Shown here: positions 1,937 through 7,002 of the stretch, piece by piece
Layout of the letters: every line of letters begins with the position of its first letter
Position numbering within the stretch: position 1 is the first letter of the stretch
The notes under the pieces: generated by a model
Told to the model about the DNA's origin: nothing
What the model saw: the letters and a program-made list of their open reading frames with translations, nothing else
Database searches by the model: none
Assembly: GCA_963702475.1 (NCBI GenBank)
Contig: CAVPCT010000003.1
Location: 768,001-832,000, forward strand
Direction of reading: 5' to 3'
From: an uncultured Thermoleophilia bacterium
GTDB lineage: Bacteria > Actinomycetota > Thermoleophilia > UBA2241
Length of the DNA stretch: 64,000 nucleotides
Made by a program: the position numbers and the translations under genes

Positions 1937-2013
1937 GGGCCTATAGCTCAGTTGGTTAGAGCAGCCGACTCATAATCGGCCGGTCGCTGGTTCGAGTCCA
2001 GCTGGGCCCACCA
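1937..2013 (+). tRNA. tRNA-Ile2 (anticodon CAT, lysidine type; elongator Met less likely)
   Basis: GGGCCTATAGCTCAGTTGGTTAGAGCAGCCGACTCATAATCGGCCGGTCGCTGGTTCGAGTCCAGCTGGGCCCACCA: full cloverleaf, paired 1-72, encoded CCA. Confidence 0.95.
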
Positions 2014-2095
2014 GCCCACCAGCGTTGTCACAATGACAACGTTTCTCCCTGCAAAACAGCGTAGTCTGCGTACCCGTTCGTCCATCCGGATGGAG
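2008..2095 (+). repeat. Cassette junction 0 (attL-like): tRNA 3' end plus left arm
   Basis: CCACCA, duplicated GCCCACCA, then CGTTGTCA-CAA-TGACAACG-TTTCTCCCTGCAAAAC...TACCCGTTC...CATCCGGATGGAG. Homologous to 2922-3001 and 3798-3876. Confidence 0.85.
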
Positions 2096-2194
2096 AGGTG
2101 TATGCCCGCCTCCGGGCACGCGATGTCCGTGCCCGAGGGCGTAAGATGCAATCACCGGGAGTGAGGAGCCTTACGGAGTGGGAGGAGGCTTGAG

Positions 2195-2494
2195 GTGAGT
2201 CTTCAGATCGACGTGGATGCAGAGGGACTGGCTGCCTTCTGCCGGCGCAACGGCATCGGTCGCCTCTCCTTCTTCGGCTCCGTCTTGCGTGAAGACTTCG
2301 GTCCCGAGAGCGACGTCGATGTACTGGTCGAGTTCGTCCCCGACGCCAGGGTCGGGCTCTTCGAGTTCGTCGATCTGCAGCGCCAGCTCGGCGAACTGCT
2401 TGGACGCGACGTCGACCTGCACACGCCCGCGAGCCTCAGCCACTTCTTCCGCGATGACGTGATCGATTCCGCCGAGGTCGCCTATGCCGCATAG
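2195..2494 (+). CDS. Minimal nucleotidyltransferase (MNT) antitoxin
   Basis: FGSVLREDFGPESDVDVLV (GSx10DxD motif), 99 aa, overlaps a HEPN gene. Confidence 0.92.
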   Translation: MSLQIDVDAEGLAAFCRRNGIGRLSFFGSVLREDFGPESDVDVLVEFVPDARVGLFEFVDLQRQLGELLGRDVDLHTPASLSHFFRDDVIDSAEVAYAA

Positions 2495-2834
2495 GCGCGA
2501 CACTGTCTTCATCGCGCCGATGATCGAGGCGGCCGAGGCGGCAGTCGAGTTCTGCGACGGGCAGACTCCAGAGAGCCTCGCCGGCGACCGCCTCGTCGGC
2601 TTCGCCGTCGTGCGCGCCGTCCAGCTCGTAGGGCAGGCAGCACGCGGCGGATCCGAGGAGCTGCAGGCGGCTCACCCCGAGATCCCTTGGCGCGAGATGA
2701 TCGGCATGCGCAACGTCGTCGTGCACGACTACGCCGATGTCGACATGGCGCTCGTCTGGAAGACAGTGCACGACGACCTGCCTGGGCTCGTCGAACGGTT
2801 GAGGGTGATCATCGCCGAGGACGGCGGCGCCTGA
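2484..2834 (+). CDS. HEPN (DUF86/HepT-like) RNase toxin
   Basis: PEIPWREMIGMRNVVVHDY with Rx4H motif. Confidence 0.92.
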   Translation: MPHRRDTVFIAPMIEAAEAAVEFCDGQTPESLAGDRLVGFAVVRAVQLVGQAARGGSEELQAAHPEIPWREMIGMRNVVVHDYADVDMALVWKTVHDDLPGLVERLRVIIAEDGGA

Positions 2835-2895
2835 AGCAGTCCTTGCGGCGGCGAGGTCAGCCGGCGCCATCGTTCCCTCGGCAGACGGGGCCGCA

Positions 2896-3001
2896 GAAGC
2901 TCGAAAGCTGTCTCCTTAGGTCCACCAACCGTTGTCACAATGACAACGTTTCTCCTGCAAAACGGCGAAGTCCGCCTACCCGTTCTTCCATCCGCATGGA
3001 G
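2896..3001 (+). repeat. Cassette junction 1 (attP-like: right arm, core, left arm)
   Basis: GAAGCTCGAAAGCTGTCT-CCTTA-GGTCCACCA-ACCGTTGTCACAATGACAACGTTTCTCCTGCAAAAC...CTACCCGTTC...CATCCGCATGGAG. Confidence 0.85.
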
Positions 3002-3072
3002 CGACTGGGAAGACAGCGCGCCTGTGGCCAGTCGAGGCGCTCCCGGGTAGCATGAGCGAAGGAGGTGCCGAA

Positions 3073-3381
3073 GTGGTCGAGATCCTGGAGGACAAGCGTG
3101 AGGCTATTGCAGAGCTGTGTGCTCGCCACGGCGTCGTGCGTCTCGACGTGTTCGGATCTGCCCTGCGCGACGACTACCGTCCCGGCGAGAGCGATGTGGA
3201 CCTGCTCGTAGAGTTTGGGCCCATGGACGGCTACGCGAAAGCGGTCGCCTACTTCGACCTGCTCGAAGACCTGCGCAGCCTCCTCGGCGTCGAGGTCGAC
3301 CTCGTCATGGCCAGTGCCGTCAAGAACCGCTACATCGCGCGCGACATCGAACGCACGCGGCAGCTGCTCTATGCCGCGTAG
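3073..3381 (+). CDS. Minimal nucleotidyltransferase (MNT) antitoxin
   Basis: FGSALRDDYRPGESDVDLLVEF; GTG start after GGAGG. Confidence 0.92.
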   Translation: MVEILEDKREAIAELCARHGVVRLDVFGSALRDDYRPGESDVDLLVEFGPMDGYAKAVAYFDLLEDLRSLLGVEVDLVMASAVKNRYIARDIERTRQLLYAA

Positions 3382-3724
3382 CACCGCTGCCTACCTCGCT
3401 GACGTGGTCGATGCGTGCGACTCGATCAGCGAAGTACTCGAGGGTGTCGATCTCGAGACCTACCGCGCCAGGCGTCCGATCCGCTCTGCTGTGGAGCGCG
3501 AGTTCGTCATCATCGGTGAGGCCGTGTCGGCGCTGACCCGCCAAGCTCCCGAGGTCGCGGCCGGCATCTCCCGTGCGCGCCTCATCGTCGGCTTCCGCAA
3601 CCAGGTCGTGCACGAGTATGCGACCATCGATGACGAGGCCGTGTTTGCGATCGCCCGGCATGACGTGTCAGTCCTCCGTGATGAGTGCGCGGCGCTCCTC
3701 GGCCAGATCGCAGGGGAGGACTGA
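3371..3724 (+). CDS. HEPN (DUF86/HepT-like) RNase toxin
   Basis: MPRSTAAYLADVVDAC...AVEREFVIIGEA...FRNQVVHEY (Rx4H). Confidence 0.92.
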   Translation: MPRSTAAYLADVVDACDSISEVLEGVDLETYRARRPIRSAVEREFVIIGEAVSALTRQAPEVAAGISRARLIVGFRNQVVHEYATIDDEAVFAIARHDVSVLRDECAALLGQIAGED

Positions 3725-3776
3725 CACGACACCACTGGTCTCTTCAGGGGCATCCATGCTGCCTGAACCCCGCCGA

Positions 3777-3876
3777 GAAGTTCGAAAGCTGTCTGGTCCA
3801 CCAACGTTGTCAGAATGACAACGTTTCTCCCTGCAAACGGCCGATCTCTGCCTACCCGTTCGACCATGCGCATGCG
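3777..3876 (+). repeat. Cassette junction 2 (attP-like)
   Basis: GAAGTTCGAAAGCTGTCT-GGTCCACCA-ACGTTGTCAGAATGACAACGTTTCTCCCTGCAAAC...CTACCCGTTC...CATGCGCATG. Confidence 0.85.
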
Positions 3877-4020
3877 CCCACGATCAGCGGCGCCCCCCCC
3901 AGCGTCTTGCGAGCGGACCGCCGCCGGGGGAGACTGGACACCTCAGCGCAGGAGGCCACGGACGCACCAAGGTCCCGCTACGGGAACTACGCCGCTTGGC
4001 TGCGGGGACGGAGGTCATGC

Positions 4021-4233
4021 ATGTCGGTCACCTTCATGATCGAACTGGAGCAAGAGGCCGATGGCCGCTGGATCGCCGAAGTGGTCGAGTTGCCGGGGGT
4101 GCTCGCCTACGGCGCCACCGACAGCGAAGCCATCGCGCGCGTGCAGGCGCTCGCCCTGCGGGTCGTGGCGGACCGCCTGGAGCACGACGAGACCGATCGC
4201 TCCCTGCTGGACATCTCCTTCAAGGCTGCATGA
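4021..4233 (+). CDS. hicB: HicB family antitoxin (short form, no DNA-binding domain)
   Basis: MSVTFMIELEQEADGRWIAEVVELPGVLAYGATDSEA; partial RNase H fold signature. Confidence 0.88.
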   Translation: MSVTFMIELEQEADGRWIAEVVELPGVLAYGATDSEAIARVQALALRVVADRLEHDETDRSLLDISFKAA

Positions 4234-4442
4234 CGGAGTGGCCGAGCACGCGAGCGCGGCTCGTGCTCGCCGCGCTGCTCCGCATCGGCTGGGAGGTCAA
4301 GCGCCAGTCGGGCTCGCACAAGGTACTCGCTCGCCCCGGCCGGCCCGACGTGGTCTTCGCCTTCCACGACGGTGACGAGATCGGGCCACGCATGCTCGCG
4401 AGGATCGCGAAGCACACGGGGCTGAGACCGGAAGACCTGTAG
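4230..4442 (+). CDS. hicA: HicA family mRNA interferase toxin
   Basis: LLRIGWEVKRQSGSHKVL...HDGDEIGPRMLARIAK; ATGA overlap with hicB. Confidence 0.9.
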   Translation: MTEWPSTRARLVLAALLRIGWEVKRQSGSHKVLARPGRPDVVFAFHDGDEIGPRMLARIAKHTGLRPEDL

Positions 4443-4480
4443 GACCACTCTCCTCACTCTCGCCGTCCAATCTGGCTCGA

Positions 4481-4512
4481 GGAGTCCGAAAGCTGTCTTG
4501 TCAGGCTCACCA
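4481..4512 (+). repeat. Cassette junction 3 (attR-like: right arm and core only)
   Basis: GGAGTCCGAAAGCTGTCT-TGTCA-GGCTCACCA, not followed by the left arm. Confidence 0.75.
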
Positions 4513-4689
4513 AACCCCCCGTGCCACCGCGCGCCACGACGCTCTCTGCTCGCGCCACACGCCGCGCCGAAGCTCACACCGAGGTGAGCACGTCGTCGTG
4601 GCGGCGAGGCGCCCGTGACGGGATCGGCGAGGACGGTCCCTTGGCCAGGGTCGCCACAGACGCGGTGCCGTGCTCACGCGTGAAGTCCG

Positions 4690-5240
4690 CGCGCACCTGA
4701 CGGTTGAGACGCGTGTTCTTCCTGTAGCCAGGTTGCTGACGAGATTGCGGAGAGGCTGGCGGCCGCTCCACATGCCTCCGCCCACCCGCTCCGCTATGCG
4801 GGGCAGGGAGTAGAACCGCCGCGTGCACGGGTCCATCTCGGCGACGATCTGCGCGGTCGACAGCTGAGCCTACCGGGCGACGGGGAGGGCCAGTGTGTAG
4901 TGCTGCCAGTCCTCCGGCGAGCGGTCGAGAAGCACGCGGTCGTCCGCTTTCATCCGGTCCCAGAGGCGAGTACCCGGCAGCGGCGTCAGGAACAGTGCGT
5001 TGAGCGTGTCACACGGCAGACGCTCGCCGTCGTGGCGACACGCCGGCCGATGCCGGGTCGGTCCACGTCCAGGCCGATCACGAAGGACCCGGCCACGAGG
5101 ATCCTGTGCCGCTGGATGCGTCGCGCGGAGGCCCGGAAGTCGCGATCTCCCTGGGCATTCAATCTCTTGCCGAGCTCCCTGAGCCCCTCGGGAGAGGGGG
5201 ACTCGAAGCCGATGAACTCCAGCGGTTCTCTTTGACGCGC
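4690..5240 (-). pseudogene. Remnant C-terminal half of a B12-binding radical SAM protein
   Basis: FIGFESPSPEGLRELGKRLN...RRIQRHRILVAGSFVIGLDVDRPG, then a frameshift to DTLNALFLTPLPGTRLWDRM...DWQHY, an in-frame TAG and a further frameshift. No N-terminal half. Ends approximate. Confidence 0.7.
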
Positions 5241-5348
5241 AGGATGCTGCCCTGCGGGTCGGACGGGTCGATCAGGAGGAGACGCATGGCGTGTCACGCA
5301 CCTTCCGCCGCGCATGCTCACCGGAGCCATGTCGGCGGTGAAGCCCGG

Positions 5349-5543
5349 TCAGGTCCGGCGCCTGTTCGCCGGCGACGGGCACAAGGCGTCGTGCACCGAG
5401 CAGCAAGGTCCGGGGTTGTAGGCCGAGAGCAGGGTCGTGCAGCCGGGTGACGCGCACACGCGCCCGTACCCGTACTCGGCGATCCGGTCGCCGGCCTTGC
5501 CGGTTGCAGGGGGCAAGAAGCTCCCTGGGGTGCGGGACTTCAA
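5349..5543 (-). CDS. Small hypothetical Cys/His (putative Zn-binding) protein
   Basis: YGYGRVCASPGCTTLLSAYNPGPCCSVH; Cx4C...CxxH spacing. Start uncertain (TTG). Confidence 0.55.
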   Translation of the reverse strand: MKSRTPGSFLPPATGKAGDRIAEYGYGRVCASPGCTTLLSAYNPGPCCSVHDALCPSPANRRRT

Positions 5544-5607
5544 GAGATCGGGGGGGCGAGGCGACGACAGTCCATGGGGACCCTTCTGTTGGCGGGGACG
5601 GAGCCGG

Positions 5608-7002
5608 TCAGCCGGCCGTGGGGGCGGGCGGTGTCGGGCGACGAACGGCCGCGAGCGTGCGCAGGTACTCGCGGTTGCAGCGGTCTCTGGCCCAGCGACG
5701 CGCGTACCACCAGCACCAGGTGTGGTCGCGCAGGCTGAGCCAGCGGCGTTCTGCGAGGCACGTGAGCCACTGGCGCGTGGAGTAGAAGCGTCGGTACCCC
5801 TCCAGCACGGCCGCCTGGAGCGTGGACGGATCCATGGCGGCGGGCGTGATGACGACGTGCTGCCCGTCGTAGAGCTGCCAGCGCCTGTCGAAGATGCGAC
5901 CTGCGCCGTCCACCTCGTCGAACCAGCCGGTGCCCGGCGCCGGGGTGAGCACGTTCAGCATGACCGTGTCGATGCGGTGGTGCAGGGCGAAGTCCACGGT
6001 GCGGCGCATGGTGGCCGCGTCGTCGCCGTCGGCTCCGAGGACGAACATGCCGTGCACGCGGATGCCGTGGCGGTGGATGGCGTCGATGGCCGCCACGATG
6101 TCGGTGACGGTTTGCGACTTGTGCAGCGCGTCCAGGGTGGCCTGGTCCACCGACTCCAGGCCCAGGCCCAGGGTCTCGCAGCCGGAACGTCGCATGAGAT
6201 CGAGCAGCTCACCGTCCCTCGCGGCATCCGTTCGCACCTGCGCCTGCCAGGGGATCACGAGACCGCGCCCGATCAGGGCGCGCAGCAGGGTCTTGAGGCG
6301 TCCGCGGTCGGCGGCGAAGTTGTCGTCGTAGAAGAAGATGTGCGACGGGCGCTTGCGCTCGATCTCGTCGACCACGCTCGCCGCGCTGCGGAAGCGGTAC
6401 TTGCGCCCGAACATCGCCGTGACCGAGCAGAAGCTGCAGGCGAAGGGGCAGCCCAGGCTGGTCATGATGGGGGTGGAGCGCATGCGTTCGTGCCCGACGA
6501 TGAGGGACAGGTCGGGCACGGGCAGGTCGTCGAGGTCCTCGCAGGCGGGCCGCACCGCGTTGTGGACGTGCCGCCCGTGGCGCGTGAACGAGAGGCCGGC
6601 GATCGATGCCAGATCGCGCTCGCCGCGCAGCGCGGCGAGCAGCTCGATCACGAGCTGGTCGCCGCCCTCGCCGCGCGCCACGTAGTCGGCGTGCGCGAGC
6701 GCCTCGTCGGCCATGAACGTGACGTGCGAGCCGCCGATGATCACCGGCACGCCCCGGCTGCGGAGGCGGTCGGCCATCGCGTACGCGGCCGGGGCCGTGG
6801 ACGTGGTCGTCGAGAACCCGACGATGCCCGCACCGAGCACGTCGTCCCAGTCTACGGGGGCCAGCTGCTCGCAGTAGATGCGCACGTCGTGGCCTGCGTC
6901 GGCAAGTGCGGCGCCGATGATCGGCAGCCCGAGACGTGGGTAGCGCCAGGGCGACATGAGGTGGACGCTCGGCGCCCTCGGCTCGATCAGGCGGATCTTC
7001 AC
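5608..7002 (-). CDS. B12-binding domain radical SAM protein
   Basis: IIGGSHVT cobalamin-domain motif, GCPFACSFC cluster motif, FYDDNF, LGLES. Confidence 0.92.
   Translation of the reverse strand: MKIRLIEPRAPSVHLMSPWRYPRLGLPIIGAALADAGHDVRIYCEQLAPVDWDDVLGAGIVGFSTTTSTAPAAYAMADRLRSRGVPVIIGGSHVTFMADEALAHADYVARGEGGDQLVIELLAALRGERDLASIAGLSFTRHGRHVHNAVRPACEDLDDLPVPDLSLIVGHERMRSTPIMTSLGCPFACSFCSVTAMFGRKYRFRSAASVVDEIERKRPSHIFFYDDNFAADRGRLKTLLRALIGRGLVIPWQAQVRTDAARDGELLDLMRRSGCETLGLGLESVDQATLDALHKSQTVTDIVAAIDAIHRHGIRVHGMFVLGADGDDAATMRRTVDFALHHRIDTVMLNVLTPAPGTGWFDEVDGAGRIFDRRWQLYDGQHVVITPAAMDPSTLQAAVLEGYRRFYSTRQWLTCLAERRWLSLRDHTWCWWYARRWARDRCNREYLRTLAAVRRPTPPAPTAG

Follow-up and report, generated by a model that had tools for sequence, protein, structure and literature searches.

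Directly behind the only tRNA gene in a stretch of 64,000 nucleotides from an uncultured Thermoleophilia bacterium (hereafter the window; G000:C3:768001-832000), three pairs of toxin–antitoxin (TA) genes are separated by repeats that resemble attachment sites. On balance, we read positions 2014-4512 as a tandem array of three non-autonomous integrative cassettes, placed exactly 3' of the CCA of this tRNA(CAT) gene. We likewise lean towards tandem accretion of such cassettes by a site-specific recombinase acting in trans, with the array in the window as one case of a family-wide system. The recurrence of recombinase-less, variable arrays behind tRNA and transfer-messenger RNA (tmRNA) genes suggests a gene-capture system in one Thermoleophilia family. 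Throughout, G numbers denote genomes (G000 being the window's own, an assembly of 4.3 Mb in 9 contigs with 70% G+C and 93.8% completeness), L numbers denote loci, and P1 is a 19-bp site in the left arm of each cassette.

The anchor gene (Table 1), with anticodon CAT, is labelled Met by ARAGORN and scores 72.6 bits as a tRNA in Rfam; its Ile-like body, GGGCCTATAGCTCAG, suggests that it may be tRNA-Ile2. CCACCA core ends at 2013, 2927, 3803 and 4512 (the last CTCACCA) delimit units of 914, 876 and 709 bp, as the original prediction, made from the bare sequence, had stated. The junctions, J0 to J3 counted from the tRNA, follow the order right arm, (C/G)CACCA core and left arm, with J3 consisting of the right arm alone; this anatomy bears out the asymmetric attL, attP-like and attR junctions that had been proposed. 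The left arms form a 77-nt direct repeat in three copies (2016-2092, 2922-2998 and 3798-3874). Their palindrome CGTTGTCA-N3-TGACAACG occurs at 2023, 2930 and 3805, three times against 0.02 expected, and three or more copies arose in 0 of 100 shuffles. Similarly, the right-arm motif TCGAAAGCTGTCT lies at 2901, 3782 and 4486 (one mismatch in the last), and right arms with (T/C)CGAAAGCTGTCT were found three times against 0.61 expected (three or more in 2 of 100 shuffles). Because MAFFT aligns the right arms of the window with the T-arm and acceptor end of its own tRNA, the right arm is best regarded as a degenerate copy of the tRNA 3' end. J1 is spanned by a contig from public run X5 and J3 by a contig from run X3.

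The same design is widespread among relatives. P1 followed by GTTT was matched, at two mismatches or fewer, in 45 of 89 genomes of uncultured Thermoleophilia from the same family as the window, often in clusters, while the reversed control gave 0. Species-representative genomes yielded 17 stretches, mostly titled Thermoleophilia, Actinomycetota or Actinomycetes metagenome-assembled genomes (MAGs), with one titled Solirubrobacteraceae and one Acidobacteria. The full junction pattern was present in at least 120 metagenome stretches, from which a set of 80 loci (406 kb) was analysed. Arrays are restricted to the 3' ends of tRNA and tmRNA genes, and six anchors were observed, namely tRNA(CAT) (Ile2/Met), Arg(CCG), Arg(ACG), Glu(TTC), Ala(GGC) and tmRNA. 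In aligned loci the left arms begin 0-2 nt past the CCA of intact tRNA genes, or past the tmRNA in L050, so that insertion occurs at the 3' end of the anchor and keeps that gene intact. Every unit of an array has the same orientation. We found no published description of arrays of this kind, the supplementary examples of the tycheposon preprint discussed below lying outside the search.

A degenerate copy of the T-loop (GGTTCGA) and CCA closes every unit. The 136 distinct right arms have in common GTTCGA(G/A)AG(C/T)TGTC and the following 10 nt through the core, and 134 of them keep this length. Their terminal 9-mer is GGTCCACCA in 78, GGTGCACCA in 44 and another sequence in 14. Among 20 family loci fetched for comparison of anchors and right arms, GGTGCACCA closed 9 of 10 right arms in arrays at Arg(CCG) or Glu(TTC), whose tRNAs end in GGGGGCACCA, and 0 right arms at tRNA(CAT) or at the tmRNA-like 3' end of L040. 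The last base pairs of the right arm thus co-vary with the 3' end of the anchor tRNA. Some right arms are instead authentic tRNA copies, of 26 nt (L052) and 49 nt (G078), and G080 has a repeat of 45 nt. No conserved hairpin was detected in the right arm. The 45 nt upstream of its conserved part are variable, with a weak periodicity of three bases (mean entropies of 1.74, 1.30 and 1.41 for the three phases).

As a separate observation, the right arms of relatives contain a conserved reverse-strand micro open reading frame of 20-35 codons, running from a GTG within the core into the cassette and encoding V-D/H-L-S/T-G/R-Q-L-S-N-L-R-x-E-V/L-x-R-L-F/L-D/E (for example L039:3520-3578, L042 and L044). 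This frame is either left over from the start of an ancestral gene or specifies a genuine peptide, and it is lost in the window's own arms.

The 106 distinct left arms, of about 85 bp, follow the consensus CGTTGT-N7-ACAACG-TTCTCCCTGCAAA-(about 20 variable positions)-TGTCCGGTCGCCTACCCGGTCGC and contain a direct repeat, CCGGTCGC-CTAC-CCGGTCGC. P1, a 6-7-6 inverted repeat, measures 19 bp in 105 of the 106, and more than 25 different spacers occur within it. The six outer base pairs can form in 91-100% of left arms, and the spacer length stays fixed even where the inner bases cannot pair. Given this fixed geometry and the many spacers, a dimeric DNA-binding protein fits P1 better than a hairpin does. 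Further, the whole junction folds no better than shuffles on either strand (z -0.6 to -1.6), which leaves an attC-like fold unsupported; Rfam reports no family in the window besides tRNA; a search for sigma-70 promoters in the left arm returned 0; and P1 is terminator-like at J1, a count equal to chance (1 found, 0.9 expected). The left-arm part TTCTCCCTGCA resembles the trailers of many ordinary tRNA genes of G000; pyrimidine-rich ..CCTGCA trailers follow many native tRNA genes of that genome.

A second left-arm type was also noticed after some cores and one tRNA(CAT). It reads AGCACTAGCAT(T/G)ATAGTAGG..., then continues with a terminator-like GC-rich hairpin and run of T, and carries a TATAAT box on the reverse strand; the cargo behind it is a ribbon-helix-helix protein and an ABC ATPase.

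Comparison with relatives, a check proposed together with the original prediction, supported it: the number, order and cargo of cassettes vary, and arm-less sites occur. Among 30 tRNA(CAT) loci, P1 stood directly behind the tRNA in 13 and unrelated or degenerate sequence in 16, one locus being unreadable; as none of the 30 has the flanks of the window locus (CbiM-tRNA...radical SAM), an orthologous empty site for that locus was not found among them. G023 and G024, two small genomes of 98% completeness, have no arm behind tRNA(CAT). Where relatives share the gene neighbourhood upstream of tRNA(CAT), the comparable first cassettes differ. From 49 complete cassettes, each spanning a left arm through the right arm that follows, 12 homologous pairs in 7 groups were obtained, with 83-99.5% identity in different contexts. 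A cassette encoding a 476-aa beta-helix protein is in position 1 in G058 and in position 3 in G060 (98% identity); a zinc alcohol dehydrogenase (Zn-ADH) cassette opens the array behind the tRNA in L144 and closes that of L100; and a DUF1801 cassette is last in L104 and L111 and internal in L117. One chromosomal flank, CGACCCTCATGC, follows three different last cassettes on four contigs (L095; L100; L104 and L111), and at the array ends of L044, L049 and L055 the right arm and core are followed by a native-looking trailer. Because the cassettes vary, the flank is common and the cores run into the trailer, the whole array is best described as inserted precisely where the CCA would otherwise meet the native trailer of the tRNA.

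Within the window's own genome, a profile search of all of G000 returned the three junctions of the window and one second locus on the same contig, and no further P1 was present in the 4.3 Mb at two mismatches or fewer. The repeat is therefore confined to these two places and is not genome-wide. The second locus starts with a tRNA-like stub, in which ARAGORN finds no tRNA, and a full left arm at C3:1123441. Its first unit, of 9.4 kb, is closed by a right arm at C3:1132820 and carries a major facilitator superfamily transporter, a TetR regulator, a corrinoid protein, an MttB-family methyltransferase and permeases; the adjoining 3.4-kb unit, with its right arm at C3:1136246, carries a catalase-peroxidase (katG) and a Fur-family regulator. 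Thus, the arms flank cargo other than TA pairs in G000 itself. In addition, a degenerate P1 with a 12-nt internal duplication (..CCATTCCGACAG CCATTCCGACAACG) lies behind tRNA-Arg(CCG) at C3:940650-940700 with no recognizable cassette. It was found by eye, having been missed by the mismatch and profile searches alike, and from its sequence it looks like the relic of a third docking event.

Some features of the second locus are reported for their own sake. The catalase-peroxidase gene (C3:1133215-1135391; L008:14215-16391, reverse strand) is in two frames, split at about L008:15090 by a frameshift or an assembly error. The MttB-family gene (C3:1129670-1131112; L008:10671-12113) has no in-frame stop and stands beside the corrinoid protein, and a URO-D-family gene adjoins the 9.4-kb unit just beyond its left arm. 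ARAGORN predictions in G000 include a tRNA-Pyl(CTA) and a tRNA-Sec (C3:641046-641118 listed).

The cassettes are units flanked by att-type arms that hold neither recombination nor transfer genes. The 49 complete cassettes range from 701 to 9407 bp with a median of 1846 bp, and only 12 are under 1 kb. Their cargo is diverse and lies on both strands, many being multi-gene and some containing regulators. It includes MntA/HepT, PIN with an AbrB-like partner, the rifampin ADP-ribosyltransferase Arr, ABC transporters, STAND and DUF4143 ATPases, an HAD hydrolase, DUF1801, ArsR/MarR regulators, a class-V aminotransferase, a beta-helix protein and an IS21-type transposase; zinc dehydrogenases are the commonest, at 15 loci. 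The system is therefore neither TA-specific nor sub-kilobase, contrary to the original prediction. A small Arr cassette recurs in five loci (L046:7329-7895, L053, L056, L039 and L052), of which the L046 copy matches Pfam Arr-ms at E 4e-45 and the remaining four were assigned to its group from BLASTP.

In the window itself, a TA pair in each unit had been predicted. The two MntA/HepT pairs and HicA exceed their Pfam cut-offs (Table 1), and the assignment of HicB fell short: the 70-aa reading frame that overlaps hicA upstream has no match in Pfam, NCBIfam or PADLOC, and its PDB match is non-significant (E 0.58). Judged by sequence, cassettes 1 and 2 fit type VII TA systems, with adjacent genes for a minimal nucleotidyltransferase and a HEPN RNase above the Pfam cut-offs. 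NCBIfam also calls these genes MntA/HepT, at 35-40 bits and thus under its cut-off of 60 (NF047752, MntA of cassette 1: 39.6 bits). The MntA proteins of cassettes 2 and 1 are 41% identical over 93 aa. PADLOC places the MntA proteins in PDC-S09 and the DUF4143 ATPase in PDC-S01, both candidate families and not proven defence; the anti-phage role that had been suggested has no other basis. The three TA pairs of the window probably merely stabilize the array or themselves, and the array may now be immobile.

Homologues of the MntA/HepT pair of cassette 1 were also seen about 0.5 kb behind tRNA(CAT) in L216 (G044) and L233 (G084), one of them in another genus, with 84-87% and 78-81% amino-acid identity. 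The left arms that precede them are degenerate or different.

Table 1. Coordinates of the array in the window, its cargo and related features
Feature	Position	Strand	Evidence or remark
Anchor gene tRNA(CAT)	1937..2013	+	Sole tRNA of the window; docking point is its 3' end GGGCCCACCA; ARAGORN, Rfam
GCCCACCA at J0, repeating 8 bp of the tRNA 3' end	2014..2021	+	Sequence reading
Left arm 0	2022..2100	+	P1 CGTTGT-CACAATG-ACAACG at 2023-2041
Left arm 0, remaining parts			tRNA-trailer mimic TTTCTCCCTGCAAA, then GCGTACCCGTTCG, palindrome CCATCCGGATGG
Cassette 1, MntA-type nucleotidyltransferase antitoxin	2195..2494	+	PF01909 NTP_transf_2, 49.2 bits (cut-off 21)
Cassette 1, HepT-type HEPN RNase toxin	2484..2834	+	PF01934 HepT-like, 81.3 bits (cut-off 23.5)
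Right arm 1 and core GAAGCTCGAAAGCTGTCTCCTTAGGTCCACCA	2896..2927	+	Degenerate copy of tRNA T-loop and 3' end
Left arm 1	2928..3005	+	P1 at 2930-2948
Cassette 2, MntA-type antitoxin	3052..3381	+	NTP_transf_2, 50.5 bits (cut-off 21)
Cassette 2, HepT-type toxin	3371..3724	+	HepT-like, 57.2 bits (cut-off 23.5)
Right arm 2 and core GAAGTTCGAAAGCTGTCTGGTCCACCA	3777..3803	+	Family norm minus 5 nt
Left arm 2	3804..3880	+	P1 at 3805-3823, spacer CAGAATG
Cassette 3, presumed HicB antitoxin, 70 aa	4021..4233	+	Named by position alone; 4-nt overlap with hicA
Cassette 3, HicA toxin	4230..4442	+	PF07927 HicA_toxin, 55 bits (cut-off 27)
Right arm 3 and degenerate core GGAGTCCGAAAGCTGTCTTGTCAGGCTCACCA	4481..4512	+	Array end, no left arm after it
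Truncated paralogue fragment of the radical-SAM gene (5608-7002)	4986..5330	-	37% identity over 63 aa, E 7e-6
Second left-arm type, sites in relatives	L039:115 and 13413; L042:11704 and 2911; L053:8490; L215		

Taken together, the anatomy of the junctions, the exact boundary at CCA, the co-variation of core and anchor and the fixed P1 argue for a sequence-specific protein and for conservative recombination in trans. In such a mechanism, conservative site-specific recombination at the (C/G)CACCA core would both insert and excise cassettes, and each new insertion would push the older cassettes further from the tRNA. The enzyme would be encoded elsewhere and would most plausibly be a tyrosine integrase of the tRNA-targeting type that reads the T-loop/CCA mimic together with P1. 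A second exchange at the CCGGTCGC block, either site-specific or homologous, may re-assort left arms among cassettes.

Several results weigh against this reading, and the behaviour of the left arm is among them. The right arm is inherited together with the cargo to its left; in the Zn-ADH pair, 70 nt are identical. In 4 of the 7 homology groups, however, the left arm before the cargo is a different allele and homology starts at the CCGGTCGCCTACCCG(A/G)TCGC block, a mismatch not predicted by one-site recombination of attP with attB. Nor does the conservation of a cassette extend to the left arm that follows its right arm. Since its alleles do not follow the neighbouring cargo in these groups, the left arm behaves as a separately assorting segment, and the original view of right arm, core and left arm as a single attP, correct in that the junction is real, is incomplete. 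A second exchange point, site-specific or homologous, would have to be at the CCGGTCGC block, where GCCTACCC, compared by eye, agrees with the tRNA end GCCCACCA in 6 of 8 bases. Concerted evolution of left arms within contigs is unsupported (mean identity 0.73 within and 0.71 between contigs, p 0.085). The distance from CCA to P1, which varies by 0-2 nt, is also unusual for conservative recombination.

The search for the recombinase provides the other results on this side. As the original prediction had noted, the window contains no tyrosine recombinase matching PF00589, and the arrays elsewhere are likewise without one; the nearest matches are one 48 kb before the window and a fragment 4 kb beyond it. 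In all, PF00589 matches six places in G000, of which three are fragments, two are Xer-like genes and one is an intact integrase next to tRNA-Asn, and no such gene adjoins an arm. Searches of G000 for a serine recombinase, a Y1 transposase (PF01797: 0), an IS110 transposase and a reverse transcriptase returned none, and its IS91 search was blank together with the control, which makes it uninformative. Among the integrase matches listed for five relatives, none lay within an array, and none of the 49 cassettes contains a recombinase or an integrase fragment. When eight integrases were compared by tblastn with 108 loci, comprising all arm-bearing loci and control loci fetched for their integrase genes, only the control loci were matched, plus a partial match on the metagenome contig L105, located 5 kb from the nearest arm. 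An element that combines these arms with an integrase was found neither in G000 nor in five relatives nor in the 80 metagenome loci, a search limited by MAG binning, which may drop plasmids and phages; viral contigs gave 0 matches to two patterns. Circularly permuted cassettes were absent from 71 junctions and terminal-overlap circles from the 80 metagenome loci. Public reads (20 runs with at most 0.34 of the sampled words) yielded, from the four runs examined, only short contigs of low depth with no joint among them, a result that is uninformative on excision or circles. With no circle, excision product or recombinase found, the circles and trans-acting enzyme of the original prediction remain inferred.

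Particular enzyme families fared no better as candidates. An IntI-like integrase is not required, being absent from G000 and G050, and its occurrence does not follow that of the arrays (both in 28 genomes, arrays only in 17, IntI only in 23 and neither in 21; Fisher p 0.40, from related genomes that are not independent samples). A family of Zn-ribbon tRNA integrases, present in 69 of the 89 genomes, showed no association either (37/45 array-positive and 32/44 array-negative genomes). A lead that connected left arms with such integrases through TTCTCC(C)TGCAAA was withdrawn, because similar trailers follow many ordinary G000 tRNA genes. Xer recombination was rejected as well: the single dif-like site of G000, located by a generic pattern at C9:333322 (ACGCACGATAA-TCATCG-TTATGTAAAGT), is unrelated to P1 and the core. 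Independent of the arrays, IntI-type integrases (Phage_int_SAM_4 plus Phage_integrase) occur in 51 of the 89 genomes beside small open reading frames, for example at L234:4363-5358 in G060, so classical integrons may exist in this family. Many of these matches carry one in-frame TGA flag near the C-terminal end.

The lack of a linked recombinase, the re-assorting left arm and the 0-2 nt of play keep homologous exchange, island decay and an unrecognized mechanism under consideration. Homologous recombination alone, with RecA swapping, deleting and inserting cassettes between arrays through the arms of about 30 and 85 bp after transformation or conjugation, no dedicated recombinase today and an ancestral integrase element as the maker of the first arms, is a doubtful explanation. 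It would account for arrays with no associated recombinase and for mosaic arms whose left alleles re-assort against cargo at breakpoints within conserved blocks, and left arms 0 and 1 of the window do have 26 identical bases in common. However, stretches of perfect homology are short, the six different tRNA/tmRNA anchors have flanks without shared homology, the boundaries are exact at CCA with a core that co-varies with the anchor, and the constant 19 bp of P1 across genera implies a reader protein. A second, independently evolved capture platform is equally tentative and, in our view, unlikely: cassettes would dock at the universal T-loop and CCA end of several tRNA genes and of tmRNA, and dedicated machinery outside the detectable tyrosine and serine recombinases and HUH transposases would read P1 and the tRNA-end mimic, forming a functional actinobacterial counterpart of the integron with two-point exchange at the core and the CCGGTCGC block.

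Decay is less probable still. The units would then be remnants of separate integrase-bearing islands or prophages, left at the tRNA by deletions, and not mobile cassettes. Classical elements with tRNA repeats of 45-49 nt do integrate at the same tRNAs and displace arrays (in G078, and in G080, where an integrase-bearing element of 13.6 kb with a 45-nt repeat displaced the array from tRNA-Arg(ACG)), and integrase fragments are common in G000 and the relatives searched for them. Yet no such fragment is present in the 49 cassettes or in 406 kb of array contigs, apart from the partial one 5 kb away, the arms display a uniform conserved design unlike random relics, and the same small cassette appears in different positions and neighbourhoods.

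Single-strand or non-conservative transposition of the IS200/IS605, IS91 or an undescribed kind, in which CCACCA would be both the target and the point of cleavage at the right end while the P1 hairpin marked the left end, is very improbable. The Y1 and IS110 enzymes are missing from G000, the right arm has no conserved hairpin, the junction folds are unremarkable against shuffles, and P1 keeps its spacer length with unpairable inner bases; these observations stand against the same hexamer on both sides of every unit, a hairpin-capable palindrome at a variable 0-2 nt from the left cleavage point and the uniform orientation of units within an array. It is scarcely credible that the junctions serve as transcription or RNA-processing modules (tRNA-like 3' end, hairpin terminator and trailer) that punctuate accessory transcripts without any mobility, since the left-arm copy of the ..CCTGCA trailer, the terminator-like P1 at J1 and the mimicry of a tRNA 3' end are offset by a terminator count at chance, cargo in both orientations, Rfam matches to tRNA only, and cassette order, number and core–anchor co-variation that would be left unexplained.

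Accretion of non-autonomous cassettes in trans, which we favour, has parallels in cis-mobilizable elements (CIMEs) and in tycheposon islands. The arrays and CIMEs have in common att-type flanks, the lack of recombination genes, a tandem arrangement at a single attachment site and presumed movement by an integrase in trans. Two papers on streptococci (PMC5704250, PMC7563491) describe CIMEs and site-specific accretion at the attachment sites of integrative and conjugative or mobilizable elements. Unlike CIMEs, no cognate autonomous element was found here, the units are much smaller and number in the hundreds, six tRNA/tmRNA docks are used, and a uniform junction module of about 150 bp has a left part that re-assorts.

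Tycheposons of Prochlorococcus are reported to carry an integrase, and degenerated remnants with fragmented integrases to be scattered in islands (bioRxiv 10.1101/2020.12.28.424599). Both systems have cargo piled at tRNA genes with partial tRNA copies between, newcomers that displace older units, and variable or adaptive cargo; in contrast, 0 of 49 cassettes here has an integrase or integrase fragment, the partial tRNA is a conserved mimic accompanied by a dedicated left arm, and the host is a soil and sediment actinomycete lineage. No tycheposon-type tyrosine recombinase was found in the cassettes, and the replication module was not specifically searched. The islands at ssrA, the tmRNA gene, in Dehalococcoides reportedly bear their own recombinase, whereas the arrays here do not. 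The Dehalococcoides work (PMC3146451) describes tandem genomic islands at the ssrA 3' end, and the tmRNA 3' end is likewise an anchor here. Islands of tRNA-targeting tyrosine integrases share with the arrays the intact anchor gene and a direct copy of its 3' portion that closes the distal end, and differ in having their own integrase gene within the unit.

Integrons consist of IntI, attI and cassettes with attC sites, whose R''(RYYYAAC)...R'(GTTRRRY) folds as one hairpin. As in integrons, small interchangeable cassettes are ordered at a fixed dock, with TA pairs and an Arr-type gene among the cargo. However, no intI stands beside the array and no PF00589 match lies in the window or the arrays; the junctions do not fold as attC does, only the 19-bp P1 pairing, with its GTT...AAC halves in the reverse order to R''...R'; and the cassettes, of 0.7-9.4 kb, are often multi-gene, use both strands, contain their own regulators and dock at a tRNA/tmRNA end. 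The arrays are not an integron by any defining feature, contrary to the integron-like system first envisaged. Integrative mobile elements exploiting Xer recombination (IMEX) and pdif modules of Acinetobacter plasmids are small and recombinase-less, often contain TA pairs and are presumably moved by host recombinases. The arrays share with them small recombinase-less modules and TA pairs, but P1 is 6-7-6 and the 11-6-11 (28-bp) dif-like XerC/XerD sites are lacking, so they are not a Xer-dependent module. They also differ from IS200/IS605-type elements, which depend on a Y1 (HUH) transposase and have subterminal hairpins at either end, in that G000 has no PF01797 match and the right arm no conserved hairpin.

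If the cassettes are mobile, they would give a little-known, uncultured actinomycete lineage of soils, peat and sediments a compact and abundant means of exchanging genes, which would move TA pairs, candidate defence genes, Arr, transporters and small metabolic modules without a recombinase of their own. The defined site of about 150 bp could serve as bait for the enzyme, and the junction as a marker for the mining of accessory genes in metagenomes. The arrays are also a natural case of one attachment logic, the T-loop and CCA mimic, applied to many tRNA genes and tmRNA. Search methods that look for an integrase beside a tRNA would overlook them.

Beyond the array, the flank of 1.1 kb at 4513-5607, between the array end and the radical-SAM gene, contains the truncated paralogue fragment of that gene (Table 1).

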